64,000 bases of DNA, taken from positions 2,812 to 66,811 of the forward strand of contig CALXHP010000005.1 in NCBI GenBank assembly GCA_944388135.1, written 5' to 3'. The notes under the pieces were generated by a model. That model did not search any database. It was not told the origin of the DNA and saw only the letters and a list, made by a program, of their open reading frames with translations. Below, in pieces: positions 38,513-55,473 of this stretch. This DNA is from an uncultured Gemmiger sp. Its GTDB lineage: Bacteria; Bacillota; Clostridia; Oscillospirales; Ruminococcaceae. The number at the start of each line of letters is the position of its first letter. The first letter of the stretch is position 1. The position numbers were made by a program, and so were the translations under genes.

Positions 38513-39412
38513 TTATACACCGTTCACCCGGCCCAGGACTTCCGCTATCTCTTCTGCCCCCAACTGCTGCCGCACCGGGGCGGGCGGGTCGGCGGGCGGG
38601 TTGAGGGGGCAGGCCCAGTAGCCCAGGTCCAGCCAGCGGCCGAATTTGTAGCCGCTGTTCTTTTCCACCCCGTAGCGGGTGAAGCCCAGCGCCCTGTGGA
38701 AGGCGTCGCTCTGGGGGTTGGGCCGGGTGATGAGGGCAAAGGCGTTGTAGTACCCCTGCCGCTGCAGCAGTTCCAGCAAGGCCGTGTACAGCTTGCGGCC
38801 GGTGCCCTGGCCCACCACATCGGGAGCGCAGTAGACGGTGGTCTCCACATCCCAGGCGAAGGCCCGCCGGGTGTGCCAGGGGTGGGCGCAGGCGTAGCCC
38901 GCCAGACGTCCGTCGGCAGTACAGGCCACCAGGAAGGGGGCCTTTTCCAGCACCTCGGCGATGTTCTGCCGGTACTCTTCCCCGGTGGACGGTTCATACT
39001 GGAAGGTCTGGGTGCCGTGGGTCACATACCAATTATAAAGGGCCACCACGTCGGCCGCATCTTCCGGGGTGGCCATCCGCACGGTCAGCCGGCTGCGGGC
39101 GGCCCAGTCCGCCGCCAGGGCTTCCTTGTCGGCCTTGGGCAGCTTTTTCAGGGCCGCTTCCCGCCGCAGGGCCGCCGGTTTGTCGGGGCAGGCCTCGGCG
39201 TAGGCCAGCTGCACCGCCTCTTTGCCGTGGCTTTTGGTGTATTTGGCGCCCCCGGCCCCCGTGCGGTGGGCATGAAGGCGGCGGGCCAGGTCGTTGGTCC
39301 ACCCCGCATAGAGGCTGCCGTCGGCGCAGCGCAGCAGATAGACCCAGGCCGGGGTGTAGGGCTGGCGGTCGGCGGCCAGGCTGGCCGCCGGGCCGAAGGT
39401 TCCGGCGGTCAT
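38513..39412 (-). CDS. GIY-YIG (YazA/UPF0213) nuclease domain fused to a Pat/YncA-type GNAT acetyltransferase
   Basis: VYLLRCADGSLYAGWTNDLARRLHAH...GAKYT...REAALKK, followed by a GNAT domain (ETTVY...GQGTGRKLY...SDAFHRALGF...GYKFGRWLD). Confidence 0.85.
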   Translation of the reverse strand: MTAGTFGPAASLAADRQPYTPAWVYLLRCADGSLYAGWTNDLARRLHAHRTGAGGAKYTKSHGKEAVQLAYAEACPDKPAALRREAALKKLPKADKEALAADWAARSRLTVRMATPEDAADVVALYNWYVTHGTQTFQYEPSTGEEYRQNIAEVLEKAPFLVACTADGRLAGYACAHPWHTRRAFAWDVETTVYCAPDVVGQGTGRKLYTALLELLQRQGYYNAFALITRPNPQSDAFHRALGFTRYGVEKNSGYKFGRWLDLGYWACPLNPPADPPAPVRQQLGAEEIAEVLGRVNGV

Positions 39413-42067: not shown

Positions 42068-43993
42068 TCAGGGGCGGGCGTGGAGGGCGGCATCGTTGGC
42101 CACCATCACCAGCCCGGCGTAAAACATGGGGGCCCGTTTGCGGTCCTTGGAAAGCTTGTAGGGCATCAGCCGCAGCCAGTGGATGACCTCGTGCATGAGG
42201 ATGCTGTCCAGCTGGTCAGGATACCGGCGGCCCAGGTCGGCCATCAGGTCGGCCAACAGACCGTCGTAGGCGGCCGAACGGGTCAGGGCAAAGTCGATGT
42301 GGTTGCCCTGCACCGTCACCCGGGGGGTCATCATCATGAACTCGTACCCGCCGTGAAGGCTTTGCAGCAGCTTGCCGTAATCCAGGAAGGGGCTCTCATG
42401 AAGGTTGCCGGTGTTGGGGTCGATAAGATACCACCCCTTGTCGTCGGTGCGGCAGATGATGTTTTCGATGGTCAGGTCGCCGTGGATGGTGGCCACCGGG
42501 TCGGCGGCAAAAAGGGCTTCCAGCCGCTGCCGGTCAAACAGCCAGTCCAGCCGGTTCAGGTTCTGGTATTCCTTGCCGTTGATCCAGAGGGTGGGGGCCT
42601 CCATCAGGTCGTGCAGGCTGCGGGCCTCCCGCAGTTTTTGCAGGTTGCCGTCCACTTTTTTGGCGATGTACTGCCGGATTTTTTCCGGGTCAGCCGCCAC
42701 CGCCGTGGGGCGGTACAGTTTCTCTTCCAGGGTATCCAGCACCTGGCGGAGCACCGCGGCGCTTTTTTCCACCGGGTTGGAGTGAAGATACCGGAACATC
42801 CCCACCGCCTGGGGGTCGTAGGTCATATCATACCAGCAGCAGCCCGCCTCCTCGCCGGTGCGCAGGATCTCGCACAGGGGCAGCTTGTCCTGCTGGGCAC
42901 GCAGCCAGTGGAGCTGCTCCGCCAGCTTTTCCCCGTCGGCGCCAAAGGCGTATTTCCGGTAGAAGGTGCGGTTCTTGTCCATGCAGAGCATGGTGGTGGC
43001 GTTGGACCCCGCCGAATAGTCCTGCAGGATGGTGATATCCCGGTTCATCTGAAGGAACCGGTCCACCCAGGCCTTGTTCTGCAGCCCGAAATACTGGCTC
43101 AGGAAGGCGGCCCGGTCCTGGGGATCGGCCTGGGGCAGCAGGTTCAGGTAGCTTTCTTCCGCCGGGGCGGCGGCGGTGGCCTGGTTCACGGCCCCCCGCA
43201 CCCGTTCCGGCAGCAAAGTCACCAGCCACATCACGGCCAGCGGCACCAGATACCAGCTGAGCATGGCGGCGCAGGCGGCAAGGGGGGCACCGTCCAGCAC
43301 GCCGCCGGGCAGCACCACCCGCAGGTCCCCTGCGGACTGCCCGAACAGGGCGTCAAAGACATCCACCAGCCCCATGGACTGCCCGGCAGCCGTCATGGAG
43401 GCGGCCAGCGCCGTGTAAGAGCCCAGGTAGGCCGCCCACATAAGCACCGTATTGAGCCCCAGGCGCACCAGGTTGACCCGGCCCAGGTCCTTGAAGGTGT
43501 TGATCAGGCTCCAGCAAAAGACCATGCCGTCCAGCTTGAGGGTATCGTTGAAGATGCCGCAGACGGCCAGGCAGATCCGCTTGATGCCGTCCCGCAGGGC
43601 GACCACCACCACCAGTGCCACAGCCAGCACCACCGCCAGCACAAGGTAATACCGGGCCGCCATGCGGGCCGCATCGCCCCCCTGCCCCAGCAGCGCAAAG
43701 GCCGCGAAGCCCAGGGCCACAAACCAGACATCCAGGAAGCGGTCCATAATGACGGTGGCCAGGGCAAAACCGATGCCGGATTTCATCCGGCGGCCCACAA
43801 AGACCGCCCGGAACACATCCCCCAGGTGGAGGGGCAGCACGGTATTGATGGCATAGCCCCCTGCCATGCCCCGCAGCATGGTGCCCCGCTGGGGACGCTC
43901 ATAAATGCGCACAAACTGTTCCCACCGCAGCAGCCGGAAGGCATGCCCGGCAAGGACCAGCGCCATGGAAAGCAGCAAAAATGCCAGCATCAT
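42068..43993 (-). CDS. UPF0104/LPG-synthase-TM (flippase-like) membrane domain fused to an APH/choline-kinase-like phosphotransferase
   Basis: N-terminal RLLRW, GYAINTVLPLHLGDVFR and MDRFLD with about 7 TM segments. C-terminal AGSNAT, IHGDLTIENI, LIDPN and DYGKLLQS. Confidence 0.82.
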   Translation of the reverse strand: MMLAFLLLSMALVLAGHAFRLLRWEQFVRIYERPQRGTMLRGMAGGYAINTVLPLHLGDVFRAVFVGRRMKSGIGFALATVIMDRFLDVWFVALGFAAFALLGQGGDAARMAARYYLVLAVVLAVALVVVVALRDGIKRICLAVCGIFNDTLKLDGMVFCWSLINTFKDLGRVNLVRLGLNTVLMWAAYLGSYTALAASMTAAGQSMGLVDVFDALFGQSAGDLRVVLPGGVLDGAPLAACAAMLSWYLVPLAVMWLVTLLPERVRGAVNQATAAAPAEESYLNLLPQADPQDRAAFLSQYFGLQNKAWVDRFLQMNRDITILQDYSAGSNATTMLCMDKNRTFYRKYAFGADGEKLAEQLHWLRAQQDKLPLCEILRTGEEAGCCWYDMTYDPQAVGMFRYLHSNPVEKSAAVLRQVLDTLEEKLYRPTAVAADPEKIRQYIAKKVDGNLQKLREARSLHDLMEAPTLWINGKEYQNLNRLDWLFDRQRLEALFAADPVATIHGDLTIENIICRTDDKGWYLIDPNTGNLHESPFLDYGKLLQSLHGGYEFMMMTPRVTVQGNHIDFALTRSAAYDGLLADLMADLGRRYPDQLDSILMHEVIHWLRLMPYKLSKDRKRAPMFYAGLVMVANDAALHARP

Positions 43994-45621
43994 TGGGGGA
44001 TTCCTCTTTCCTGTTTTTTCTTTTGGTGCAGCAGGATTCCATACACCACCGCGGCGGCTGTAATGGCATACCCCGCAATATACGGCGTAAGGTAGTACAT
44101 GAAGTAGGTGTCGGGCGCCGTAAGGAACACCAGGGGAATACGGGCCGCCAGCGCCCCCGCCGCAAAGAAGAGCATCCACCGGCGGCGGAGCAGCAGCACA
44201 ACGATGGCCGCCGCCAGCAGAAGGAAGGAGGGCACCATCAGCCAGGTGACGGCCACCAGCCCGCCCAGGAACTCCGTCCGGTAAGACAGACTCATAATAA
44301 AATTCTCCCGCAGCGTCTGGTTCAGGGGGTAGGCTGCTACACTGTCATAGAGAAATTCTTTCTGGTTGTCCCGCATAGCTTCCGGCGGGTCGGTATAGAC
44401 AAGAACGGTGGTGGCAAAAACGATTTTCTGGTTGGATTCCGTCTCGTGCTGTTCCACCGTGTTCCAGAACACGCCCAGGCGTTCCCGCAGCAGGGAACCG
44501 GGATACTTCAGCGCCAGCTGAACGATCCCCTTTTTGCAGTTGTTCCAGTCCTCCTCGGTCAGGTCGCCGCTGACCCGGGTGATGGCATCCCGCAGCTGAT
44601 TTCCGTGCAGGGTGGAGTAGTCCCGGCAGGCCTGCACATCAAAAATGGGGTCGATCAAGGCCAGTGCTTCGGCGTCTGCCTCGGGGTCGGCGTCCTGCAC
44701 AAGGGCCGCCGCTTGATAGCACAGGGCCACCCGCTGGTACAGCCAGGCTTCCCCCATCAGATGGCTGCTGTAGGCATTGCAGGCCAGGGTACCGGCCACC
44801 AGGACCGCCGCACTGAGGACCACCCCCGCCGGGCGCACCAGTTTTTTCACGGCCAGCACAACAAGCAGTACCGGCAGGGCGGCCAGATAATAGATATTTT
44901 CGCTGCGCCAGGAAGCGGTCAAAATCCCCAGCAGGGTCAGCACGGCCAGCTGCTTTTTTCCCACCGGACGGCCCCGCAGGTACCACCATACCAGCAGGAA
45001 GAGAGTGAACAGCTCGGTCCAGGTGGACCAGGTAGAGCGAAACGGCTGCATATCATGCAGTACCACCGGCGGCAGCAAGAACGGGATATACAGAAGGGCA
45101 AACCAGCCCCGGGCCGGTGCCCTGGGCATCCGCTGTACCGCCAGGGTTTCGGCAGCCGCCAGAAAACAGCCCACCACCCCGGCAATGAGCAGCGTCTGGA
45201 TCAGCACCACCCCGCCGGGCAGGGGGATGAACATCAGCGACAGAATAAAGGCCCCGCTGGTGAGGAAATGCTGCCAGGAGGAAGGTTCCAGGGTACGGGC
45301 CAGATGGAGCACATCCAGGTCGTCGCTGCCCCAGCATCCGGGCCAGACGATGACCAGCACGATCAGGGTCACCGCCAGATAGGGCAGGGCCCAGCGCAGC
45401 CAGGCCAGGGTAAAGGGGTCCTTCCGCCGCAGGTTGCACACCAGGGTCACCGCCCCGTGAATGACCGCAAACGCCAGCAGAAGGAACAGGGCCTTATACA
45501 CAAAAAAGTAGGGCGTATGCCGGTCATAGCGGAAGAACAGCCGGTCGGTGGCCAGTGTCAGCAGGCACCATACCAGGGCAGCCGCCCCTTCCCGGAGCAG
45601 ACGTTTGCGGGATTGTTCCAT
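43990..45621 (-). CDS. Polytopic membrane protein, GT-C-like glycosyltransferase candidate
   Basis: About 12 TM segments with WPGCWGSDD (acidic loop after an early TM) and WQH, and a large extracytoplasmic loop before the last TMs. AAGGAG RBS. Confidence 0.6.
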   Translation of the reverse strand: MEQSRKRLLREGAAALVWCLLTLATDRLFFRYDRHTPYFFVYKALFLLLAFAVIHGAVTLVCNLRRKDPFTLAWLRWALPYLAVTLIVLVIVWPGCWGSDDLDVLHLARTLEPSSWQHFLTSGAFILSLMFIPLPGGVVLIQTLLIAGVVGCFLAAAETLAVQRMPRAPARGWFALLYIPFLLPPVVLHDMQPFRSTWSTWTELFTLFLLVWWYLRGRPVGKKQLAVLTLLGILTASWRSENIYYLAALPVLLVVLAVKKLVRPAGVVLSAAVLVAGTLACNAYSSHLMGEAWLYQRVALCYQAAALVQDADPEADAEALALIDPIFDVQACRDYSTLHGNQLRDAITRVSGDLTEEDWNNCKKGIVQLALKYPGSLLRERLGVFWNTVEQHETESNQKIVFATTVLVYTDPPEAMRDNQKEFLYDSVAAYPLNQTLRENFIMSLSYRTEFLGGLVAVTWLMVPSFLLLAAAIVVLLLRRRWMLFFAAGALAARIPLVFLTAPDTYFMYYLTPYIAGYAITAAAVVYGILLHQKKKQERGIPQ

Positions 45622-45647
45622 AGGGTTCTCCTTTGCCGGGGCACCGC

Positions 45648-46400
45648 TCACAGCAGCGCCTCAAATCCGGCAGCGTTTTCGGGGCTTTCGGCGGCGCGGT
45701 ATTCCGCCGGCGTGCCGAAAGGCAGATGCAGGTCGGTGGCAAAGCCCTGCACCGCGGCGCCCTGTTCCGCCAGCACATTGTAGATGCCCGACACAAAGAA
45801 CTCCTTGTACTCGCAGGCATGGAGGTACCGGGCGCAGGCATCGGCGTAGGTCTTTTTGTCCTTGAAATAGTAGGCGCCGCAGATGGCGTCATGGCTGACC
45901 ACTTGTTTTTCCACCGTGTGGCAGACGTTGCCGTCCGGGCCGTACTGCAGGTAGCTGTAGGCCGGGGAATCGCTCCGGAAGGTCAGCAGCGCCCCCGCCG
46001 GGCCGTGGGCAAAGTCGCCCCGGGCGCAGAAGTCGTTGAACGCCCGGCAGAGGAAGAGATGGTCGCAGTCGTTGAAGAGCAGAGGTTCCCCGTCGGGCAG
46101 CCCCTCGGCCCCCTTCAGCGCCGTGATGGCCGCCCCGGCCGTCACCTCCGGCAGGGCAATGATCCGGGCCTGGGGCCAGTATTCCCGGACCCTGGTATCG
46201 ATGGCAAAATCCCGGATATGCTCTTCCAGCACCACAAAGGTCAGGTCGGCGCAGTCCACGAACTTTTCCACACTGCGGGCCGCCCAGTAGAAGAAGGGCT
46301 TGCCGTGAATTTCGATGAGGGGTTTGGGGCAGACAAAGCCGTTTTCAAAAAAGCGGCTGCCCCGCCCCGCCATGGGCAGGATCAGATGGAGTTTGGACAT
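45648..46400 (-). CDS. Sugar-phosphate nucleotidyltransferase
   Basis: LPMAGRGSRF, PKPLIEIHGKP, NDCD, VEKQVVS and EFFVSGIYN. Confidence 0.85.
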   Translation of the reverse strand: MSKLHLILPMAGRGSRFFENGFVCPKPLIEIHGKPFFYWAARSVEKFVDCADLTFVVLEEHIRDFAIDTRVREYWPQARIIALPEVTAGAAITALKGAEGLPDGEPLLFNDCDHLFLCRAFNDFCARGDFAHGPAGALLTFRSDSPAYSYLQYGPDGNVCHTVEKQVVSHDAICGAYYFKDKKTYADACARYLHACEYKEFFVSGIYNVLAEQGAAVQGFATDLHLPFGTPAEYRAAESPENAAGFEALL

Positions 46401-46424: not shown

Positions 46425-47453
46425 TCAGGCGTTGTCCCGGGCCGCCAGCATCTTGCATTCTTCCGCAATCACCCGGGAAAGTCCGGTTTCGATATCCACC
46501 TGGGGTACCCAGCCGTAGGCTTCCTTCCCGTGGGTGTTGTCGCAGAGGCTGAACTTGTTCACCTCGTGGTCCAGGATCTCCGGCTTGATGCCGTAGGCCC
46601 CGCCGTACAGTTCGGGGTATTTGGCCCAGTAGTGGCTGGTGGGGCAGTATTTGGCCTCGATCTCCTTGCCCATCAGGCGGCAGGCGGTGGCGTAGAGCTC
46701 CCGCACCGAGTAGCTCTGGTTGCTGGAAACGTTCACCGCGTCAAAACCGGGCTGGGGATGGTCCACCACCCGCAGGGCCAGGTCGATGAGGTCGTCCACA
46801 TAGATGTAGTCCCGGCGCTGGTTGCCGTCGGAGTGGAACTCCGGCGTGCGGCCGTAGTAGAGTTCCCGGATCATATAGCCCACAAAGGGGGGCTGTTTGC
46901 GCAGGCAGTCGATATGGGGGCCGTAGACGTTGGCAAACCGCAGGCAGGTCACCGTCATGCCGTAGGTATCGGCAAAGCTCTGGCAGAACCGCTCGCCGCA
47001 GTACTTGGTGTTGGGGTAGATCAGGGTGGGGGTGTGGAAGGAGGTCTCCACCGTGGGGAACTCGGTCTCATTCTCATACATGGCGTTGGTGGAGGCCTGC
47101 ACCAGCTGCTTGACGCCGGTGCGGCGGGCACATTCCAGCAGATGCACCAGGCCCAGGGTGTTCACTTCCACCGCCTGGACCGGGTCGCTCTGGCAGTCGG
47201 GCAGCGGGGCGATGCCCGCAATATTGTACACCACGTCGAACTTTTCCGCCTCAAAGAGGGCGGGAATGGCCTCCCGGTCCCGGATGTCCATCCGGCGCAC
47301 TTCGCCGCCGAAGTCGTGGTCGTCGAATTTCAGGTTGTCCAGATTGCCGTAGGAGAAGTTGTCGATGCCCACGACCTCATCGCCGCGCTTCCACAGCGCA
47401 TGCCACAGCTGGCCGCCGATGAATCCGGCGGCGCCCGTTACCAGAACTTTCAT
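46425..47453 (-). CDS. NAD-dependent NDP-sugar epimerase/dehydratase (extended SDR)
   Basis: TGAAGFIG, QAST, YPNTK (YxxxK), RFANVYGP and QRRDYIYVDD. Confidence 0.9.
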   Translation of the reverse strand: MKVLVTGAAGFIGGQLWHALWKRGDEVVGIDNFSYGNLDNLKFDDHDFGGEVRRMDIRDREAIPALFEAEKFDVVYNIAGIAPLPDCQSDPVQAVEVNTLGLVHLLECARRTGVKQLVQASTNAMYENETEFPTVETSFHTPTLIYPNTKYCGERFCQSFADTYGMTVTCLRFANVYGPHIDCLRKQPPFVGYMIRELYYGRTPEFHSDGNQRRDYIYVDDLIDLALRVVDHPQPGFDAVNVSSNQSYSVRELYATACRLMGKEIEAKYCPTSHYWAKYPELYGGAYGIKPEILDHEVNKFSLCDNTHGKEAYGWVPQVDIETGLSRVIAEECKMLAARDNA

Positions 47454-47466
47454 GAGAAAAGCCTCC

Positions 47467-48261
47467 TTACTGCTGCACCGGAATTTCGGTGTAGGTGTAA
47501 TCGTCGATGATGGTATCCCGCCATTCCCGTTCCACAAAGGCTTTGGGGCTGCGCAGATACCGCCCGCAGAGTTTCAGCAGGCTGATGCCGAAGCTGGTGA
47601 GTTTGTTGTTGCTGACCTGATCTTCCTCCCGCCAGCTGATGGGGAAGAACAGCACCTTCTGTTTCAGCTGGCAGAGGGCCAGGATCATGCAGTCATTGAA
47701 ATAGAGGGTGTCGGGGAATTTTTTGTAGTATCCGTTTTTCAGGGGCGCCACGGCGTAGAGGTTCAGCCCGCTGCCCAGGTCGGTGATGCGGTGCCGGGCC
47801 ACCAGGGTGAACAGGGCGTTGAACCCGTGGTTGCCCACCACCCGCAGGGTGCTGTACCCCTGGATGCGGCTGCCCTTCATGAAGCGGGAGCCCAGGCAGC
47901 AGTCGTAGTTGCGGTAGCTGCCGTCCTCCAGGATGGGCAGCAGGTCGGCGATGGCACCCTGGTCGTCGCCGTGGAGCACCACCAGATGGTCATACCCGTG
48001 GGCCGCCGCATAGCCGAAGGCTACCTTGTGGCTGCCCCCCAGGCCGTAGTTTTTGTCGTTGCGCAGCAGATGCACCGGCGCCTCGGGGTGGCGGCGGCAC
48101 CAGTCCTGCACGGCGTTTTCGGTGCCGTCGGTGGAGCGGTTGTTGACCACGATGCACTCCCCCACCCAGGGGGCAATGCGGGCGTCCAGCAGCTGGGAAA
48201 GCACGCGGGGCACCTGTTTTTCACAGTTGTAAGCGGGAATGAATACCAGCAGTTTTTCCAT
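47467..48261 (-). CDS. GT2, DPM1/GtrB-like polyprenol-phosphate glycosyltransferase
   Basis: IPAYNCE, NNRSTDGT, NYGLGGSHK, HGDDQ, GSRF and TDLGSG. Confidence 0.85.
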   Translation of the reverse strand: MEKLLVFIPAYNCEKQVPRVLSQLLDARIAPWVGECIVVNNRSTDGTENAVQDWCRRHPEAPVHLLRNDKNYGLGGSHKVAFGYAAAHGYDHLVVLHGDDQGAIADLLPILEDGSYRNYDCCLGSRFMKGSRIQGYSTLRVVGNHGFNALFTLVARHRITDLGSGLNLYAVAPLKNGYYKKFPDTLYFNDCMILALCQLKQKVLFFPISWREEDQVSNNKLTSFGISLLKLCGRYLRSPKAFVEREWRDTIIDDYTYTEIPVQQ

Positions 48262-48332: not shown

Positions 48333-50054
48333 TTATTCCGCCCAGCCGTCCACCACCAGCACCTGCAGGCTGGCGGTGCCGTGGGTGACGGTGTACCGGC
48401 GGCTGATGGCGAAGTTTTCTTCGATCCAGGCATGGAACGCCGCCATATCCCGCACTTCGGCATCGTCATAGAGGATGACGTCGGGCAGTTTGTCCGGTTC
48501 CACCCGGTAGTATTCTTCAAAACGGGGGTCGCTGTCGGTGCCGGAGATCACCGACGCCTGGGCCACCTCCAGGGTGCCGTCGGCCATCAGGAAGCCCAGG
48601 CCGTTCTGCTCGCCGATGGCCTGCAGCACCTTCTGCCCGGCGTAGGGTTCCAGGGCTTCGTAAAGGCATTCCTGCATGTCGGCGGCCTTTTCATCGGCAC
48701 GGATGCCTTTGGCCGGGCCGTTTTCGATGGTCACCAGGGGGGTGTCGGCCAGGTCGGCGGGTTTCCAGCCGGTGGTCTGTACGCACCACAGCCGGCAGAC
48801 CGCAAGGAAGAAGAGCATTCCCCCCAGGCAGGCCAGGGCCATCCCCCGCCGCGCCCGGTCCTTCTCCCGGGCCGTCAGCACCAGCCCGCAGAGGGCCGGC
48901 CAGGTCAGGTACAAAAAGGTGGCGGGCAGTCCCAGCACGGTGGACCGCACAATGAAGCCATAGGCCGCCAGCCCCGGCAGGTATCCCAGCCAGAGGAGGG
49001 CCGCCATGCCCGGCTGTTTCCGGGCCTGCCAGAAGCCCCAGGCCCCCGCCAGTACCAGCACCGGCAGGAACTGCCGTTCGTCCAGGCTGGCATCCCGCAC
49101 AGCCCGCACCGTGCATTGCAGGGTGGTCATTCCGGCCCAGGCCAGCAGCAGGGTGTTGACCCCGCCGGGCAAGGTTCCCTTGCGCCACCGCACCGCCCCG
49201 CCAAGGAGCAGGGCGGCCAGCAGCGGCCACAGCAGGCTGCGCAGCACCGGCAGCACCTGACCGGCCATTTCGGCCAGACGCTGGGCCGCCGTAAAGCCGT
49301 ACTGGGGGTCGTCCAGGATCAGGCTGACCCGGGCCAGGAAGGCGGCCAGGTCAAAGCCCATGCCCTGCAAGGCCCAGACCAGAAAGGCCCCGCCGCAGAC
49401 CGCGCAGCTGCCCAGCAGCAGCCAGGCACCCCGGGGCACGCCGAGAAAGCGGGGTTCCCCGCCCCGGCGCCCCAGCAGGAACAGCCCCAGCCAGAGCACC
49501 GGGAAGGCCGCGGCGCTTTGGGGGTAAGCCAGAAAGCTGAAGCAGGCGCAGAGGGCGCCCGCCGCCACCAGCCAGGGGCGGCGGAACCCCCGGGTCACAT
49601 AGTGGTGGAAGCAGAGAAACGCCGCCACCGTAAAATAGAACTGCTGGCCGGTGTAGTCCGGCCCCAGGAACCATTTGGGCGCATACAGAAAGAGCACCAG
49701 GGCCGCCAGGGCGGCGCCGCCCCGGCCCAGGTCCCGGCGGAATTCCCGGTAAAAGACCCAGCTCATGGCCCCTTTGCAGAGGAGCACCGCCAGCCGCACA
49801 AAGACCAGAAGGCCGGTGGTGGTGCCGGTGACCCCCAGATAGAGGGCTACCAGGGCCGCCGGCGGCAGGGCGCAGAGCTGATGGGGTTCCCACATGGTGG
49901 CAAAGAGCCGGTCCCCGCTGACCAGACGGTACCCCAGGGAGAGGGCGTAGACTTCGTCGATCTCCAGACCCACAAAGACCTGGCGCACCATCACCAGGGC
50001 GCAGACCAGCACCAGCACCGCCCAGGCGGCACGCACTTTCCGTTCCCGCGTCAT
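48333..50054 (-). CDS. Polytopic membrane protein, GT-C-like (ligase/transferase candidate)
   Basis: GLEIDEVY acidic motif after TM1, about 13 TM segments and a C-terminal soluble domain. ATGA overlap with the GT6 gene. Confidence 0.62.
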   Translation of the reverse strand: MTRERKVRAAWAVLVLVCALVMVRQVFVGLEIDEVYALSLGYRLVSGDRLFATMWEPHQLCALPPAALVALYLGVTGTTTGLLVFVRLAVLLCKGAMSWVFYREFRRDLGRGGAALAALVLFLYAPKWFLGPDYTGQQFYFTVAAFLCFHHYVTRGFRRPWLVAAGALCACFSFLAYPQSAAAFPVLWLGLFLLGRRGGEPRFLGVPRGAWLLLGSCAVCGGAFLVWALQGMGFDLAAFLARVSLILDDPQYGFTAAQRLAEMAGQVLPVLRSLLWPLLAALLLGGAVRWRKGTLPGGVNTLLLAWAGMTTLQCTVRAVRDASLDERQFLPVLVLAGAWGFWQARKQPGMAALLWLGYLPGLAAYGFIVRSTVLGLPATFLYLTWPALCGLVLTAREKDRARRGMALACLGGMLFFLAVCRLWCVQTTGWKPADLADTPLVTIENGPAKGIRADEKAADMQECLYEALEPYAGQKVLQAIGEQNGLGFLMADGTLEVAQASVISGTDSDPRFEEYYRVEPDKLPDVILYDDAEVRDMAAFHAWIEENFAISRRYTVTHGTASLQVLVVDGWAE

Positions 50055-50902
50055 TTGGGCACCTCTTTCAGCGTTTTGTGGAGCAGCGCGTCCCGGGCGT
50101 ACCACAGGTAGGGCAGCCAGTTTTCCCGGAAGGCTTCCCACTTGCGCACCAGCCAGCTGCGGGGGTGTTCCTCCTGGTGCTTCACCGCCGCCACATCAAA
50201 GTGGCGGGCCTTGTTGCGCACCACGATCTTCGCCTCAAAGGGCAGGTCCCAGCCCTCGGGGTACCAGTAGGCGGGGGTGAGCAGCCGGTAGTCCCTGCGC
50301 TCCGCCGCATAGCGGTTCAGCTGGCTTTCGTCGTGCCACAGGGCGATGACCCCCCGGGCCAGATCCGCCTCGGTGCGGCGTTCCAGCTCATGGCAGAGGG
50401 CCAGAAAGGCCGGGGCCGTGCCCCCGTTGAGCCCGCCGGACACATAATCCCGGCCGCAGTTGTAGGGGATGTAGGCGGTACTTCTGGGGTTGCGGTCGTA
50501 GGAGTAAAAGATGGGTTTCTTGTTCCAGAACCCGGGCTGCTGCACCAGCAGCAGGTTTTCTCCCCGTTCCGGCCGGGGGAGGAATTCCTCCGCCGTGACG
50601 GTCTTTTCGCAGACCAGGTTGGCATTGAAGAAGAAGAGGAAATCACAGGCGGCCAGGGCCTTTTCCTGACTCAGGAAGATGGAAAACCGGCGCAGGGTGC
50701 TGTAGGGCCAGTCGTAGGCTTCCTGGCAGATCCGGCGGACGTTGGGGGCGTCCTCGTATTCGATATGGTCTGCGTCGGTAAAGACGAAGTATTCCTTTTC
50801 GCAGCCGGGCAGAAAGTTCGCTTCAAAGCTGCGGTAAAATTCCGGCCAGAACACCGTGTATTTTCCGGTGCAGAGGTAGAGCATCCCGATTTTCGGCATC
50901 AT
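50051..50902 (-). CDS. GT6 alpha-1,3-(N-acetyl)galactosaminyl/galactosyltransferase, bacterial NXN type
   Basis: LYLCTGKY, YFVFTD, WPYSTLRRF, FFFNAN, YVSGGLNGG and WHDESQLNRY. True start at ATG 50902 (ATGA overlap with wzx). Confidence 0.9.
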   Translation of the reverse strand: MMPKIGMLYLCTGKYTVFWPEFYRSFEANFLPGCEKEYFVFTDADHIEYEDAPNVRRICQEAYDWPYSTLRRFSIFLSQEKALAACDFLFFFNANLVCEKTVTAEEFLPRPERGENLLLVQQPGFWNKKPIFYSYDRNPRSTAYIPYNCGRDYVSGGLNGGTAPAFLALCHELERRTEADLARGVIALWHDESQLNRYAAERRDYRLLTPAYWYPEGWDLPFEAKIVVRNKARHFDVAAVKHQEEHPRSWLVRKWEAFRENWLPYLWYARDALLHKTLKEVPK

Positions 50903-52431
50903 GCGCTCCTTTTGTGTTTGAGTTTCTGCCAGATGCCGGCGGCGTACCGGCGCAGATAGGCGGCATCGCTGCCCCAGCCGTAGACCAGCAGGTTCAGCAG
51001 GTTGGGCAGGGCACAGACGATCACCGCCCGGGGCACAAGGCCCAGCCAGCCGCCCAGGGGCACCGCCTCGCAGACCGCCCAGGTGCCCCCCATGCAGGCG
51101 GCCAGGGTGACGAGATGGAGGGCCTGAGCCCGGAGATAATGGCCCAGGCTGCCCTGCATATACCGGCGGAACACCACCAGGATACGCCCCGCCCACATGA
51201 TGCAGTGGGCCACCACGGTGGCGATGAGGGCACCGGTGATGTCGAACAGGGGGAAGAGGGCGAAGCTGAGGATGAGGTTGACGGCGGCGGAAGCCACCAT
51301 GAACCACTGGTCCTGTTCAAAGTGGCCCAGCACCGCCCGGTAGGAGCCCAGCATCCGGTGGTTCCAGCCCACATATTCGTTGAGGCAGAAGACCAGCACA
51401 AAGCCCAGGGGAAGCAGCCAGTCCTCCCCCATCCAGGCGGCCATGAAGGGCTGGAAAAGGCAGAAGTAGGCGGTGGCCACAAAGCTGGCAAAGAGGTAGC
51501 TGAAGAGGTCCATTCCCCAGAACACCTGTTTGTCGTGGTCGTTGGCGGCGGCGGATTTGTCGTAGACGATGTTGCCGATGGCAGCGGCAAAGCTGTCCAT
51601 GATCTTGTTGCCCAGGTCGGTGGCGCTGGTGGAGATATTGGTATAGTTGCCCAGCAGGGTGGTCTGGGTAGAGCCGCCCATCCGGGAGGTGACGATGGTA
51701 TCCGACGAGCCGTAGATGGTGTTGGAGAGCCGGTGGACCAGATAGTACCGCAGGTCGTGGAAGATGCCCAGTTCCTTGAAATCCCGCAGGCTGACCTTCA
51801 CATCCCGGACATAGGGGAAATCCTTGCGGAACCGCCGGGCGATGACCAGGTTGGCGCAGACATTGCAGACGATGGCCACGCTGAAATAGAGCACATAGTT
51901 GGGGAACCAGAGGGAGACGGCGATCTTGGCCAGGGAGGTAAGGACATTGAAGCAGAAGTCGATGCGGGTGCACAGATACCCCTGCTGGGTGCAGGTGTAC
52001 ATGAGCCGCCGGGTGACCAGGAAGTAGCTGCACAGGGTGGACACCACGTTGAGGCCGTACACCGTGTAGCCGGTGACCAGGGGCACATCGGGCATGATCC
52101 AGGGCAGGGCGGCGGCCCCCAGCAGGGCCAGCACCGCGATGGCCAGGCCCACCGCCCGGTAGGCCCACTTGTACATCGACATGTATTTGCTGATCTTGTC
52201 GGCATTTTTGGCGGCGATCTGTTCATACAGCCGGTAGCTGATGACGCTGCCCACCCCGAACTCGGCGATGGAGAAGAAGTTGAACAGCTGGGTGACCACC
52301 TGGGAGGCGGTGCTGATCTGGGTACCGAAGTTGTAGACCAGCAGCCGCCGGGTGACCAGCCCCAGCAGGAGCAGCAGCAGGCTGGAGCCCACCGCATAAG
52401 CCATATTGATAAGGGTACGTCTGGTACGCAA
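50899..52431 (-). CDS. wzx: Wzx-type oligosaccharide flippase
   Basis: About 13 TM segments of MOP-superfamily type, with RTRRTLIN, AEFGVG and SDTIVTS..G...LGNY. Confidence 0.8.
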   Translation of the reverse strand: MRTRRTLINMAYAVGSSLLLLLLGLVTRRLLVYNFGTQISTASQVVTQLFNFFSIAEFGVGSVISYRLYEQIAAKNADKISKYMSMYKWAYRAVGLAIAVLALLGAAALPWIMPDVPLVTGYTVYGLNVVSTLCSYFLVTRRLMYTCTQQGYLCTRIDFCFNVLTSLAKIAVSLWFPNYVLYFSVAIVCNVCANLVIARRFRKDFPYVRDVKVSLRDFKELGIFHDLRYYLVHRLSNTIYGSSDTIVTSRMGGSTQTTLLGNYTNISTSATDLGNKIMDSFAAAIGNIVYDKSAAANDHDKQVFWGMDLFSYLFASFVATAYFCLFQPFMAAWMGEDWLLPLGFVLVFCLNEYVGWNHRMLGSYRAVLGHFEQDQWFMVASAAVNLILSFALFPLFDITGALIATVVAHCIMWAGRILVVFRRYMQGSLGHYLRAQALHLVTLAACMGGTWAVCEAVPLGGWLGLVPRAVIVCALPNLLNLLVYGWGSDAAYLRRYAAGIWQKLKHKRSA

Positions 52432-52437
52432 AACAGG

Positions 52438-53436
52438 TTATCCTTTCTTGCGGCGGGCTGCCAGCCAGAGGGTGAAACGGGGGCCGAACAGCCGCATCAT
52501 GGTGCGGAAGAGCCGCCAGTCCCGGCGGGTGTTTACCTCGGTGCCGTGGGCGTAGAGGGGGCGCAGCTGCCGGATGTACTTGAGGCATTTCCGGCGGATG
52601 GCTGCATCGGGTACGGCGGCGGTGCGGGCCTGGGGCCAGAAGACGTCGGCGGCCGCGTCCTGGATGACGGCGTAGGCCGCGGCGTCCACATGGCCGGCAG
52701 CGGCCATGGCCGCCAGATGCCGCTGGGCCGCCACCAGGGCCTTGAACCGCTTGGGTAGGTTTTTGGCGTCGGTGAGCAGGCTTCCCTGCCGGCCCACCCG
52801 GTAGTGGGTAAAGACCACATCCAGAAAATAGAGGCACTCGCACCGGGTGAGCAGCAGCAGGTCGAAGGGCCAGTCCTCGGCCCAGCGCACATCGGCCCAG
52901 AACTGGAACCGGTGTTCCGCCAGCCAGGACCGGCGCAGGCAGTATTTCCACACCGACCAGTGCCCCGCCCTGTAGAGGGCGTGGAGACGCTGGGCGTAGT
53001 CGCTGCTGTCAAAGGGGCCGGGCAGCAGCCGCATTCCCTCGTGTTCCCGCAAAGTCCCGTCGGGCATCCATTCCAGATGCTTGCCCACAAACCAGTCGTA
53101 GCCGGGGTGGGCGGCCAGTTCCCGCCGCAGCGCCGCCAGCAGCCCCGGGGCCATGGCGTCGTCGCTGTCCAGAAAGAGAATCCACTCCCCGGTGGCGGCC
53201 TTCAGGCCGGTGTTGCGGGCGGCGGCCAGTCCCCCGTTCTGCCGGTGGATGACCCGCATGCCGGGGATCTCGGCGGCAAAGGTGTCGCAGAGCTGGGGGC
53301 CCATGTCGGTGGAACCGTCATCCACCAGGATGCACTCCCAGTCCCGGGGGCCTTCCTGCTCGGCCACGCTCTTGACGCAGGCCGACAGATAGTTCTGCAC
53401 ATTGTACACCGGCACAATGATGGAAAACAGCGGCAT
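52438..53436 (-). CDS. GT2 glycosyltransferase
   Basis: SIIVPVYNV, VDDGSTD, NGGLAAARNTG, FLDSDD and AED. Confidence 0.92.
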   Translation of the reverse strand: MPLFSIIVPVYNVQNYLSACVKSVAEQEGPRDWECILVDDGSTDMGPQLCDTFAAEIPGMRVIHRQNGGLAAARNTGLKAATGEWILFLDSDDAMAPGLLAALRRELAAHPGYDWFVGKHLEWMPDGTLREHEGMRLLPGPFDSSDYAQRLHALYRAGHWSVWKYCLRRSWLAEHRFQFWADVRWAEDWPFDLLLLTRCECLYFLDVVFTHYRVGRQGSLLTDAKNLPKRFKALVAAQRHLAAMAAAGHVDAAAYAVIQDAAADVFWPQARTAAVPDAAIRRKCLKYIRQLRPLYAHGTEVNTRRDWRLFRTMMRLFGPRFTLWLAARRKKG

Positions 53437-53452
53437 GAGAGCCCCCTTTCGG

Positions 53453-54370
53453 TCAGTGGGTTGGGATGCGGTGCCAGTCCGGCTGGTAGAGCGCGGTCTG
53501 TTTGGTGTGGGCATACCACCGGTCGGGGGCCCAGACCTGCCGGCCGGGTTCTGCCAGGTACTGGGCCCACCAGCTGTAGGTGGAGTTGCTGAGGATGAAT
53601 CCCCGGCAGAGGGCCATAAGGCTCATATCCCCCACGGCGCTGCCCCGGGGCATAAAGACGACGGGCAGCCCCGCAGTGTCCAGATGTTCCCGGGCCCACC
53701 CGATGTCATCGGAAAAGACAAAGAGGGTGGCTTCCGGGTGGGCGGCTGCGGCGGCCGCGGCGGCCCGGGCGTAGTAGGCGGGGGTGCAGACCTGCAAAAT
53801 CTCGTTTTCCGGCTTGCAGTAGTCCCCCCGGCGCAGATGGAGCGCCACCGGCCAGGCGGCAGCCCGGATGGCTTCCGCCTCCGCCCCCGCCGGCGGGTCC
53901 TTGGGGCGCAGTTCCGCCCGGATGGTATCGGCAAAATCCTCAAAATAGGCTTCCCCCTGGAAATACCCCCAGGCCAGAAAGTCCTTGGCGGGGCCCCGGC
54001 GCACCGGCACATAGCCGTCGGTGGCAAAGTGCACCCCCGCCAGGTTCAGCAGCGGGGCGCAGCGGCGTTCCCACCGGTTCCAGTCCCGGGCCAGCAGTCC
54101 CCGGCGCTGCTCGAACTTGATCATCAGCGCCTTGGCGGCGTTCTGCCGGGGCAGATGGGCCTTGGCAAAGCCCGGCTCCGCCAGGATCTTCACCTCGGGC
54201 GAGAGCTGCAGCGCCTCCAGGGCGCAGACCGTATGGGCGGGGGCGCCGTCCCGCCAGTCCTGCCGGTCCAGCAGGGTGACGGGTTCGCCGCAGCGCAGCC
54301 CCAGGGCCCGGGCAAAGGCATAGATGAACATCTGGTTGCCCAGGCCACCGGCCAGTTCGGCGTAGATCAT
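53453..54370 (-). CDS. GT11 alpha-1,2-fucosyltransferase
   Basis: GGLGNQMF, GYFQ, HLRRGDY, FSDDIGW and NSTYSWWA. Confidence 0.93.
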   Translation of the reverse strand: MIYAELAGGLGNQMFIYAFARALGLRCGEPVTLLDRQDWRDGAPAHTVCALEALQLSPEVKILAEPGFAKAHLPRQNAAKALMIKFEQRRGLLARDWNRWERRCAPLLNLAGVHFATDGYVPVRRGPAKDFLAWGYFQGEAYFEDFADTIRAELRPKDPPAGAEAEAIRAAAWPVALHLRRGDYCKPENEILQVCTPAYYARAAAAAAAAHPEATLFVFSDDIGWAREHLDTAGLPVVFMPRGSAVGDMSLMALCRGFILSNSTYSWWAQYLAEPGRQVWAPDRWYAHTKQTALYQPDWHRIPTH

Positions 54371-55473
54371 GGGTTTCCTCCCAGTTGGTCGTAGAGTTGT
54401 TCCATCCGGGCGGCGGCGGTGTGCAGCTCGTACCCGGCGGCGGAAAGTTCCGCCCAGTGGTCGGCATGGTCCCCCCGCCCCGCAATCCGGTTGGCCGTGG
54501 CCGCCCACTCCGTGAGGGGGGCGTCCAGGGGCAGGAAATGGACCAGATCGGTGACGGCGCCGTCATCCGGCACGTTGGTGGAGGCCAGACAGGGCACGCC
54601 GCAGCCCTGGGCTTCCACCAGGGTGACGGGGCTGCCCTCAAAGTTGCTGGGCAGCAGGAAGAGGTCGAAGGCGTTCATGTAGGCGGGCACATCGCTCTGC
54701 ACCCCCGCAAAGATCACCCGGCCAGTCAGGCCGTGACGGGCGGCGGACTGCCGCATGGCCTCCTCCATCTCGCCAGTGCCCACCAGCAGCAGTTTCCAGG
54801 CGGGGTCGGTCCCGGCCAGGGCGGCAAAGACCTCCATCAGGAACAGCGGGTTCTTCTGGTGGTTCAGCCGTCCCACAAAGCCCGCCAGCCGGTCGGTGCC
54901 GGTGATGCCGTACCGGGCCCGGGTGGCGGCCCGTGCGGCGGCGTCGGGGTGAAACCGCCCCTGGTCCACGGCGTTGCAGGCAACGGCAAAGTTGGGCTTG
55001 CGGTCGATATGGTTCCCAAAGACGAACCGCCCCGCCGCCACACCGCAGCCCAGGAAATAATCGGCAAAGAGCTGGTAGACCCCGTGGGCCACCCGCCAGG
55101 TCAGGGTCAGGGGCGGGTAGACGATGTGGCTGTGGACGATGATTTTGGCCCGGGGGCAGAGGACCCGCATCATGGCGCAGACCGGCGCGCCGATCTTGCT
55201 GGCGGTGTGGTAGTGGATGATGTCGTAGTCCTTGTGGCTGCGCAGGTGATGCCACAGCCCCCGGATGCGGTCCTTTTTGTGGTCGGGCACCGGAAAGATG
55301 CGCACGCCCGCGGCTTCCAGGGCGGGGGCGGTGCCGGCCTGGTCGGGGGGACACTGCCCCACAAAGAGGTCCACCTGATACCGGGTGGTGTCCAGGTGGA
55401 GCAGCAGATTCTGCACATACCGCTGTACGCCGCTCTGCACGCCCAGGTGGTTGCTGATCATCAGAATGCGCAT
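54367..55473 (-). CDS. GT4 glycosyltransferase (EpsF/CapH-like)
   Basis: IVHSH, VGRLNHQKN and PSNFEGSPVTLVEAQ (EX7E motif). Confidence 0.9.
   Translation of the reverse strand: MRILMISNHLGVQSGVQRYVQNLLLHLDTTRYQVDLFVGQCPPDQAGTAPALEAAGVRIFPVPDHKKDRIRGLWHHLRSHKDYDIIHYHTASKIGAPVCAMMRVLCPRAKIIVHSHIVYPPLTLTWRVAHGVYQLFADYFLGCGVAAGRFVFGNHIDRKPNFAVACNAVDQGRFHPDAAARAATRARYGITGTDRLAGFVGRLNHQKNPLFLMEVFAALAGTDPAWKLLLVGTGEMEEAMRQSAARHGLTGRVIFAGVQSDVPAYMNAFDLFLLPSNFEGSPVTLVEAQGCGVPCLASTNVPDDGAVTDLVHFLPLDAPLTEWAATANRIAGRGDHADHWAELSAAGYELHTAAARMEQLYDQLGGNP

Follow-up and report, generated by a model that had tools for sequence, protein, structure and literature searches.

A UPF0104/MprF-type membrane domain joined to a divergent APH-fold kinase in Gemmiger, and a candidate cassette for extracytoplasmic glycosylation

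MprF carries a membrane domain of the UPF0104 (LPG_synthase_TM) family whose handling of lipids has been described. Residues 66–325 of RtMprF, which correspond to transmembrane helices (TM) 2–8 of Subdomain 1, form a cytoplasm-facing, lipid-head-group-binding Cavity C with a lateral opening toward the lipid leaflet, and the outward-facing Cavity P consists of TM1 and Subdomain 2 (TM9–14) (PMC8131360). Lipid in Cavity C also acts as a regulator of the MprF synthase domain (PMC8131360), and the membrane domain was found to scramble diverse lipids (PMC11980842), translocation being reported in PMC8131360 as well. UPF0104 proteins other than MprF are lipid or glycolipid flippases by prediction only (PMC5898192; GpgF and HexF in PMC12713373). 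As for multi-component transmembrane glycosylation, a review from 2021 describes no UPF0104 component (PMC8035078). Here we describe a protein of 641 aa, encoded in a 64,000-nucleotide stretch of DNA from an uncultured Gemmiger sp. (the window), in which, judging from sequence profiles and a structural model, a UPF0104/MprF-type membrane domain is joined to a divergent APH-fold kinase. A literature search of limited coverage revealed no paper describing such a UPF0104-kinase fusion. The gene stands in a compact group of genes that may represent a self-contained cassette for extracytoplasmic glycosylation, in which the kinase would start the synthesis of a dedicated nucleoside-diphosphate (NDP) sugar and the membrane half would handle the polyprenyl-phosphate-sugar stage. 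The chances of this reading being right are, in our opinion, about even.

The open reading frame (ORF) at 42068–43993 on the minus strand encodes 641 aa and a stop codon. The original prediction had read it as one uninterrupted frame, and all four motifs quoted at that time were located in the translation: NTVLPLHLGDVFR at aa 50–62, DRFLD at aa 84–88, HGDLTIEN at aa 504–511 and LIDP at aa 523–526. The ATG at 43993 is the best start, since it forms an ATGA overlap with the TGA that ends the upstream gene, and the ribosome-binding site GGAAAGAGGA precedes it. A longer frame of 703 aa starting from a GTG at 44179 is unlikely, because it overlaps the neighbouring gene for a GT-C-type glycosyltransferase and homologues begin at the ATG. 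Many long ORFs also run over the gene on the opposite strand, but they are spurious and negligible given the 64% G+C of the window. Some Gemmiger genomes have the GT-C and UPF0104-kinase genes merged into one open frame of 981 aa (YfhO, PF09586, plus PF03706). This natural triple fusion, which joins the two genes exactly where the window shows the ATGA overlap, is found in P0087, P0089 and G641:C1:2442361-2443350, and one such genome is complete.

The N-terminal half was matched by the Pfam family LPG_synthase_TM (PF03706, COG0392) with 58.6 bits against a cut-off of 33.4, over profile positions 34–279 of 302, so that the UPF0104 domain named in the original prediction was recovered above threshold. 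NCBIfam gave a sub-threshold match to a 'flippase-like domain' and nothing else for the whole protein. Among the 45 members of a family alignment (23–66% identity to the window protein), 44 were matched by PF03706. The same alignment was used as input for AlphaFold2, and the resulting model (pLDDT 92.1, pTM 0.85) displays in aa 1–262 about seven long helices, of which two are broken, followed by a linker and a C-terminal bilobal kinase (aa ~300–641). Similarity of the membrane half to MprF was seen using VIA, which is independent of Foldseek: 6lvf_B residues 66–325 superposed on aa 1–265 with Z 11.0, 219 residues aligned and a root-mean-square deviation of 4.8, and PaMprF 9j8q_A with Z 10.2. 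Foldseek of the full model returned kinases only. The invariant or near-invariant residues of this half are R23, P54, G58, D/E59, R62, D/E84, D88, K138, W186 and Y189, and such a conserved charged intramembrane site indicates that the domain is more than a passive anchor. A simple hydropathy scan under-called the transmembrane segments; topology was taken from the model helices and from family-wide counts of lysine plus arginine (K+R) in the loops. According to these counts, the linker after the last transmembrane helix is on the positive side, namely in the cytoplasm, and the N-terminus is outside. The true membrane crossings number either 5 or 7, which is ambiguous, and under either count the kinase behind the K+R-rich linker is predicted to be cytoplasmic; the earlier reading had proposed a topology prediction on this point.

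The kinase half is harder to recognise by profile. The APH family (PF01636) matched it at 23.3–23.6 bits, a borderline value next to the cut-off of 23.2, and Pfam detects the kinase in 11 of the 45 family members; that it misses this half in about three quarters of them explains why databases name these proteins just 'flippase-like'. At the level of fold, Foldseek retrieved APH/ELK small-molecule kinases only (E ~1e-6 to 1e-7, identity 12–17%), including NahK, MTR kinase, LicA, APH(3')-Ia, FN3K, glucosamine kinase and maltokinase. VIA ranked APH(2'')-IIIa (3tdv, Z 14.3), APH(3')-Ia (4ej7, Z 14.2), glucosamine kinase (6hwj, Z 14.1), maltokinase (Z 13.5) and LicA (4r77, Z 13.4) close together. 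These matches are effectively tied, and the substrate is therefore not assignable from the fold. Look-alikes in the ESM Atlas were annotated as 'hypothetical protein' or fell in generic APH clusters only. The invariant set comprises the G329-S-x-A-x-T loop, K347, H504-G-D506-x-T-x-E-N511 and I-D525-P-N, and by these sequence criteria the kinase half is catalytically competent. The APH-type kinase proposed earlier is thus upheld by both the family-wide invariance of its catalytic residues and the fold (Z 13–14).

Exhaustive searching of representative sequences yielded 1284 clusters at E ≤ 1e-3, of which 314 remained at E ≤ 1e-30. Over 100 clusters are full-length co-linear fusions, reaching down to ~25% identity, and kinase-only proteins of 320–440 aa make up ~10% of the cluster representatives. 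A pattern scan with one genome per species found the fusion in at least 198 species, mostly Gemmiger/Subdoligranulum, other Oscillospiraceae and Lachnospiraceae, with minor occurrence in some Paenibacillus, other Bacilli, Treponema and Johnsonella. Within the genus of the window it is carried by 37 of 62 other species genomes, single-contig genomes included, and the frame is always at least 633 aa long. An assembly artefact, which would have accounted for the joining of the two halves, is ruled out by this full-length conservation. At the family level the fusion occurs in 2 of 200 genomes, and an even sample of the phylum (400 genomes) contained neither the fusion nor further stand-alone kinases. 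The distribution, which the original prediction had proposed to count, therefore describes a genuine but patchy accessory gene, widespread in its genus and rare outside.

The neighbouring genes of the window were compared by tblastn with 80 fusion loci. The HAD hydrolase gene is directly downstream of the fusion in all 80 loci, and a nucleotidyltransferase gene lies beside it in 79, nearly always directly upstream. The 264-aa GT2 is present in 69 loci. The GalE-like epimerase (46 of 80) is a facultative cassette member, and the family of the 553-aa GT-C neighbour is present in 30 loci. Genes for Peptidase_C26, MYG1 and GNAT proteins further downstream are kept in close relatives only. Clustering of the neighbours gave the typical operon as (GtrA)–(~533-aa polytopic)–GT2–(epimerase)–nucleotidyltransferase–fusion–HAD–(GtrA)–(~533-aa polytopic). 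In the window, the cassette genes are translationally coupled by ATGA overlaps or gaps of ≤17 nt with strong ribosome-binding sites; for instance, the HAD gene starts 17 nt past the stop codon of the fusion with AAGGAG as its ribosome-binding site. The coordinates of the cassette genes and of the motifs of the fusion protein are collected in Table 1.

Table 1. Features of the fusion gene and of the surrounding cassette in the window
Feature	Coordinates	Strand	Evidence
Fusion gene, 641 aa (UPF0104/LPG_synthase_TM half and APH-fold kinase half)	42068..43993	minus	ORF, Pfam, AlphaFold2 model, homologues
Membrane domain, aa 1–262, resembling MprF Subdomain 1 (about TM2–TM8), two broken helices	43208..43993	minus	PF03706, VIA, helix map
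Intramembrane motif P54-x-[K/R/H]-x-G58-D59-x-x-R62 at a transmembrane helix break	43808..43834	minus	Invariant or of invariant sign, 45 members and 56 loci
D84-R85-x-x-D88 motif in the following transmembrane helix	43730..43744	minus	Conserved across family alignments
Kinase domain, aa ~300–641, predicted cytoplasmic	42071..43096	minus	Foldseek and VIA matches; K+R-rich post-TM region
Nucleotide-binding loop G329-S-x-A-x-T334 and N-lobe K347	42953..43009	minus	Invariant; strands E333-338, E343-350
Brenner catalytic loop H504-G-D506-L-T-I-E-N511	42461..42484	minus	Invariant in alignments A1, A2, A3
I-D525-P-N, metal-binding Asp (DFG equivalent)	42413..42424	minus	Invariant
HAD-IA hydrolase, beta-PGM/YqaB type, 185 aa	41494..42051	minus	Pfam, NCBIfam, sequence
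GT-C-fold glycosyltransferase, 553 aa, polytopic, coupled to the fusion	43990..45651	minus	AlphaFold2 and VIA, D110 invariant
Sugar-1-phosphate nucleotidyltransferase-like protein, 250 aa	45648..46400	minus	NTP_transf_3 and NTP_transferase, 4evw, motif
GalE-like SDR 4-epimerase/dehydratase, 342 aa, ATG at 47453	46425..47453	minus	Pfam, NCBIfam, start codon and ribosome-binding site
DPMS-like GT2, 264 aa, no TM; candidate polyprenyl-phosphate sugar synthase	47467..48261	minus	PF00535, 5mlz

The GT2 domain of the glycosyltransferase is certain; its best solved relative is DPMS of P. furiosus (5mlz, E 6.6e-7), and the models for PpgS, AglJ and Dol-P-hexose transferase match it weakly; no hydrophobic segment was found in its 264-aa sequence. 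The nucleotidyltransferase possesses the sugar-1-phosphate nucleotidyltransferase motif PMgGxGxRF...PKPLI, and its PDB matches are 4evw (E 2.7e-14), an uncharacterised NDP-sugar pyrophosphorylase, and 1tzf only. All four HAD motifs are present in the hydrolase. The 553-aa neighbour has no Pfam match, and its relatives are DUF6020/YfhO-like. In an AlphaFold2 model built from 26 homologues (pLDDT 89), the first 20 VIA matches are GT-C enzymes without exception (Z 17.4 to 8.0, the next match being at 6.9), among them Pmt1/2 (17.4), ALG12 (17.0), AglB (15.3), ArnT (13.7) and PglB (13.4); Foldseek of the same model gave no significant match (best E 0.28). On this modelled fold the protein is a GT-C transferase, and its D110 is invariant in the family. 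Besides these genes, a few Lachnospira/Eubacterium loci (L037:7281-8855, L045, L047) encode, behind the HAD gene, a PutP/PanF-like sodium:solute symporter that may import the substrate of the kinase.

A kinase, a HAD enzyme and a nucleotidyltransferase, with or without an epimerase, are the usual set of enzymes by which a dedicated NDP-sugar is made. Such a pathway may pass through a bisphosphate, as heptose synthesis does, or it may use a phosphatase, an anomeric kinase and a pyrophosphorylase in turn, as in MupP/AmgK/MurU. In the scheme proposed for the Gemmiger cassette, the C-terminal half would be the cytoplasmic, ATP-dependent APH/ELK-fold small-molecule kinase of a bifunctional inner-membrane protein and, together with the downstream HAD hydrolase and the upstream nucleotidyltransferase, would make a dedicated NDP-sugar from a sugar or sugar phosphate, both the order of these three steps and the kind of sugar being what we infer from gene context. 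The epimerase may then 4-epimerise the NDP-sugar, and the GT2 without transmembrane segments would put the sugar on polyprenyl phosphate. The N-terminal half of the fusion may bind polyprenyl phosphate or the polyprenyl-phosphate-sugar in the cytoplasmic leaflet and pass it across or on to the outer face, where the GT-C enzyme would move the sugar to a cell-envelope polymer. From the functions of the neighbouring genes, the cassette thus appears to make a donor, load it on polyprenyl phosphate and use it outside. The original prediction had tied the first committed step of donor synthesis to translocation. The context supports the first side of this tie, linking the kinase to sugar-nucleotide supply through the nucleotidyltransferase and HAD genes, and it connects the fusion with lipid-linked glycosylation through the GT2 and GT-C genes; on the second side, the membrane half may or may not itself translocate the lipid.

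A metagenome scan gave one clean stand-alone kinase locus, L088 (n=1). In L088:5197-8418, a stand-alone kinase of 334 aa is located between the nucleotidyltransferase and HAD genes, and the order epimerase–nucleotidyltransferase–kinase–HAD is kept. The context is a low-G+C cytoplasmic polysaccharide cluster with GT4, WavE, GT28, DegT and UDP-sugar dehydrogenase genes, and UPF0104, DPMS-like GT2 and GT-C genes are all absent from this cluster. This arrangement, a single case, suggests from gene content that the kinase has a soluble substrate and that it is the lipid-linked stage to which the membrane half belongs. The HAD ORF of L088 has 131 aa and may be truncated.

Several observations weigh against the proposed scheme, to which the dependence of the last argument on one locus may be added. 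On the side of the kinase, the fold matches fail to separate sugar kinases from choline and antibiotic kinases, and sequence and profile searches against all PDB chains retrieved just a match of 24 residues to the catalytic loop of a protein kinase. On the side of the membrane, VIA Z scores below ~13 between helical bundles may reflect a common arrangement, so that with Z 11 for an all-helical domain the UPF0104 membership rests mainly on the Pfam match. MprF has a gate pair, E280–R304, and a YRxxY motif on TM8. In the membrane half of the fusion, the last transmembrane helix holds a family-wide mean of 0.2 K+R with no conserved R304-like Arg evident, and no counterpart of TM1 and Subdomain 2, which make up Cavity P, was found; the membrane half may therefore bind lipid without translocating it. 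Other flippase candidates are also present in many operons. GtrA-family genes (PF04138) occur in the fusion operon in at least 24 loci, plus L043 and L057. Paired, overlapping half-size EamA genes (~115 + 120 aa) resembling ArnE/ArnF, the undecaprenyl-phosphate-aminoarabinose flippase pair, lie directly after the HAD gene in Paenibacillus and one Lachnospiraceae genome (L034:12611-13295, L069:12623-13307, L057:12495-13161). Altogether, GtrA or ArnE/F-like genes share the fusion operon in 28 of the 56 non-Gemmiger loci. The UPF0104 half had earlier been thought to replace a missing GtrA flippase. It is the sole flippase candidate in the operon of the window, but three GtrA-family genes lie elsewhere in the same genome, on other contigs, and the polar residues of the membrane domain are equally invariant in the 56 loci with or without GtrA or ArnE/F partners. 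This part of the original prediction is thus not supported, and the membrane domain appears to have its own conserved function instead of being a GtrA stand-in.

Such a function could be that of a lipid sensor or docking module, a tentative alternative in which the membrane half binds polyprenyl phosphate or polyprenyl-phosphate-sugar in a Cavity-C-like site and flipping is left to GtrA, ArnE/F-like or other proteins. The module might recruit the GT2 to the membrane, or feed back on the kinase, the first committed step, to match donor synthesis to the availability of the carrier lipid. The invariance of the polar site in spite of the GtrA and ArnE/F-like genes, the lack of Cavity P elements and the regulatory role of the Cavity C lipid in MprF (PMC8131360) all speak for it, as do the absence of transmembrane segments in the GT2, for which GacI/GacJ offer the precedent of a TM-less GT-A with a membrane partner (PMC8035078), and the pTM of 0.85, which would imply a fixed interface between kinase and membrane half in the model. 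Nevertheless, another flippase candidate is nowhere near in the remaining 28 of the 56 operons and in the operon of the window. The flippase role of GtrA is unproven as well; the membrane domain of DPMS likewise belongs to PF04138, and GtrA could for this reason be the membrane partner of the TM-less GT2 instead. A further, rather doubtful reading makes the UPF0104 half the core of a new coupling device. It would be either a true polyprenyl-phosphate-sugar translocase, GtrA being the membrane subunit of the GT2, or a sensor of the lipid intermediate or carrier that gates the kinase and throttles the first committed step according to the undecaprenyl-phosphate pool.

The remaining explanations concern what the kinase phosphorylates. 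It is unlikely that the kinase acts on a lipid-linked substrate (polyprenol, polyprenyl-phosphate-sugar or a glycolipid head group) offered by the membrane half in an MprF-like hand-off, resulting in carrier-lipid activation or a phosphorylated lipid-linked sugar. The architecture does parallel MprF in placing a cytoplasmic enzyme on a UPF0104 domain with a conserved charged site, and the protein-kinase-like superfamily includes lipopolysaccharide-core kinases whose substrates are lipid-linked sugars. Against this stand the soluble kinase of L088, which has the same nucleotidyltransferase and HAD partners with no lipid-phosphate-sugar route, the kinase-only tenth of the cluster representatives, and the universal adjacency of nucleotidyltransferase, kinase and HAD genes, a signature of soluble sugar-nucleotide synthesis; moreover, the nucleotidyltransferase would be left without a role. 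Phosphorylation of the lipid-linked sugar, which the original prediction had offered as its second option, is disfavoured by the same stand-alone kinase in a cytoplasmic cluster. More improbable is a permease for a free sugar or small solute with a fused kinase that traps the solute by phosphorylation, that is, LicB/LicA-type salvage in one polypeptide. Salvage requires an importer, which is absent from most operons, and a transporter-kinase fusion would aid channelling. However, we know of no UPF0104 or MprF-fold carrier that transports solutes, the operons of L037, L045 and L047 have a sodium:solute symporter of their own beside the HAD gene, the membrane domain is found along with the lipid-linked route and is missing from L088, and Cavity C of MprF opens laterally to the lipid leaflet (PMC8131360). 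Very improbable, finally, is a LicA-like choline or ethanolamine kinase that works with a LicC-like cytidylyltransferase to place phosphocholine on surface polymers, although LicA is among the tied structural matches, the neighbouring nucleotidyltransferase weakly matches NTP_transf_3, the family of LicC, and the occasional symporter is PutP/PanF-like and not of the sugar type. No Choline_kinase (PF01633) Pfam match was found in the fusion and no LicD (PF04991) in the genome of the window, which is 83% complete. In addition, the best solved relative of the nucleotidyltransferase is an NDP-sugar pyrophosphorylase, and the GalE-like epimerase and DPMS-like GT2 point to a sugar.

The cassette, which abundant Oscillospiraceae and Lachnospiraceae of the human and animal gut carry as a patchy accessory trait, probably contributes to strain-specific surface glycan diversity. 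With putative donor-synthesis enzymes, a candidate lipid-loading GT2, a UPF0104 domain and a GT-C enzyme in one operon, it offers a compact test case, and the two separable invariant sites (D506 in the kinase, R62/D88 in the membrane half) should give distinct phenotypes when changed by point mutation.

Further genes around the cassette were also observed. An upstream operon (50051-54508, minus strand) encodes members of GT11, the alpha-1,2-fucosyltransferase family, and GT6, the ABO-type alpha-1,3-Gal/GalNAc transferase family, together with GT2, GT4 and GT-D-like genes, and may make a histo-blood-group-like glycan in a gut commensal. Two polytopic ORFs among these glycosyltransferase genes (48333-50141, minus, 602 aa; 50899-52431, minus, 510 aa) gave no match in Pfam and NCBIfam and may be a Wzy- or Wzx-like polymerase or flippase, or a further GT-C enzyme. 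Downstream of the MYG1-family gene, a 299-aa ORF (38513-39412, minus) has a GIY-YIG nuclease domain at its N-terminus as well as a GNAT acetyltransferase domain, and is conserved in close relatives only.

Compared with known systems, the donor-supply part of the cassette resembles AmgK-MurU-MupP/NahK salvage, in which an APH-fold sugar kinase, a sugar-1-phosphate nucleotidyltransferase and a HAD phosphatase yield an NDP-sugar while the normal route is bypassed. The kinase described here differs in being membrane-tethered, and no solved kinase could be matched to it by sequence. Orthology with AmgK/MurU/MupP was rejected: the HAD protein reaches 42 bits with the MupP model, for which the cut-off is 359, and the nucleotidyltransferase is closest to 4evw. 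MprF shares with the fusion a UPF0104/LPG_synthase_TM domain and a C-terminal cytoplasmic enzyme that serve one pathway, and the cytoplasm-facing lipid head-group cavity lies in the very part of RtMprF (66–325, Z 11.0) that superposes on the membrane half. However, the C-terminal enzyme of MprF is a DUF2156/LPG_synthase_C aminoacyl transferase, for which the fusion has no Pfam match, its own enzyme being an APH-fold kinase. MprF has 14 transmembrane helices with Subdomain 2, whereas the fusion has about seven in aa 1–262 that align to RtMprF 66–325 only, and the R304/E280 gate is not evident in it. The contexts differ too, namely phospholipid aminoacylation for MprF and glycan decoration for the fusion.

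In AglD-type GT2-UPF0104 fusions and with the stand-alone proteins GpgF and HexF, UPF0104 is genetically tied to a lipid-linked-sugar glycosyltransferase, as it is here to a candidate one (PMC5898192, PMC12713373). The difference is that AglD-type proteins have UPF0104 fused to the GT2, whereas in the cassette it is fused to the kinase and the GT2 is separate and TM-less. The multi-component systems GtrA/B/V, CsbB-GtcA-YfhO, ArnC-ArnE/F-ArnT and GacI/J/K/L have a GT-A enzyme for the C55-P-sugar, for which the GT2 is the candidate counterpart in the cassette, and share with the cassette a GT-C enzyme for transfer of the sugar outside, and the fusion operons, like these systems, often hold GtrA or ArnE/F-like genes. 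The flippase step of these systems has, to our knowledge, been assigned by inference only. Unlike them, the cassette appears to bring its own NDP-sugar supply (kinase, HAD hydrolase, nucleotidyltransferase and sometimes epimerase), and it has a UPF0104 domain. The fusion protein shows the MprF-style architecture of an enzyme on a UPF0104 domain, and its cassette would carry out multi-component glycosylation with a built-in donor supply.

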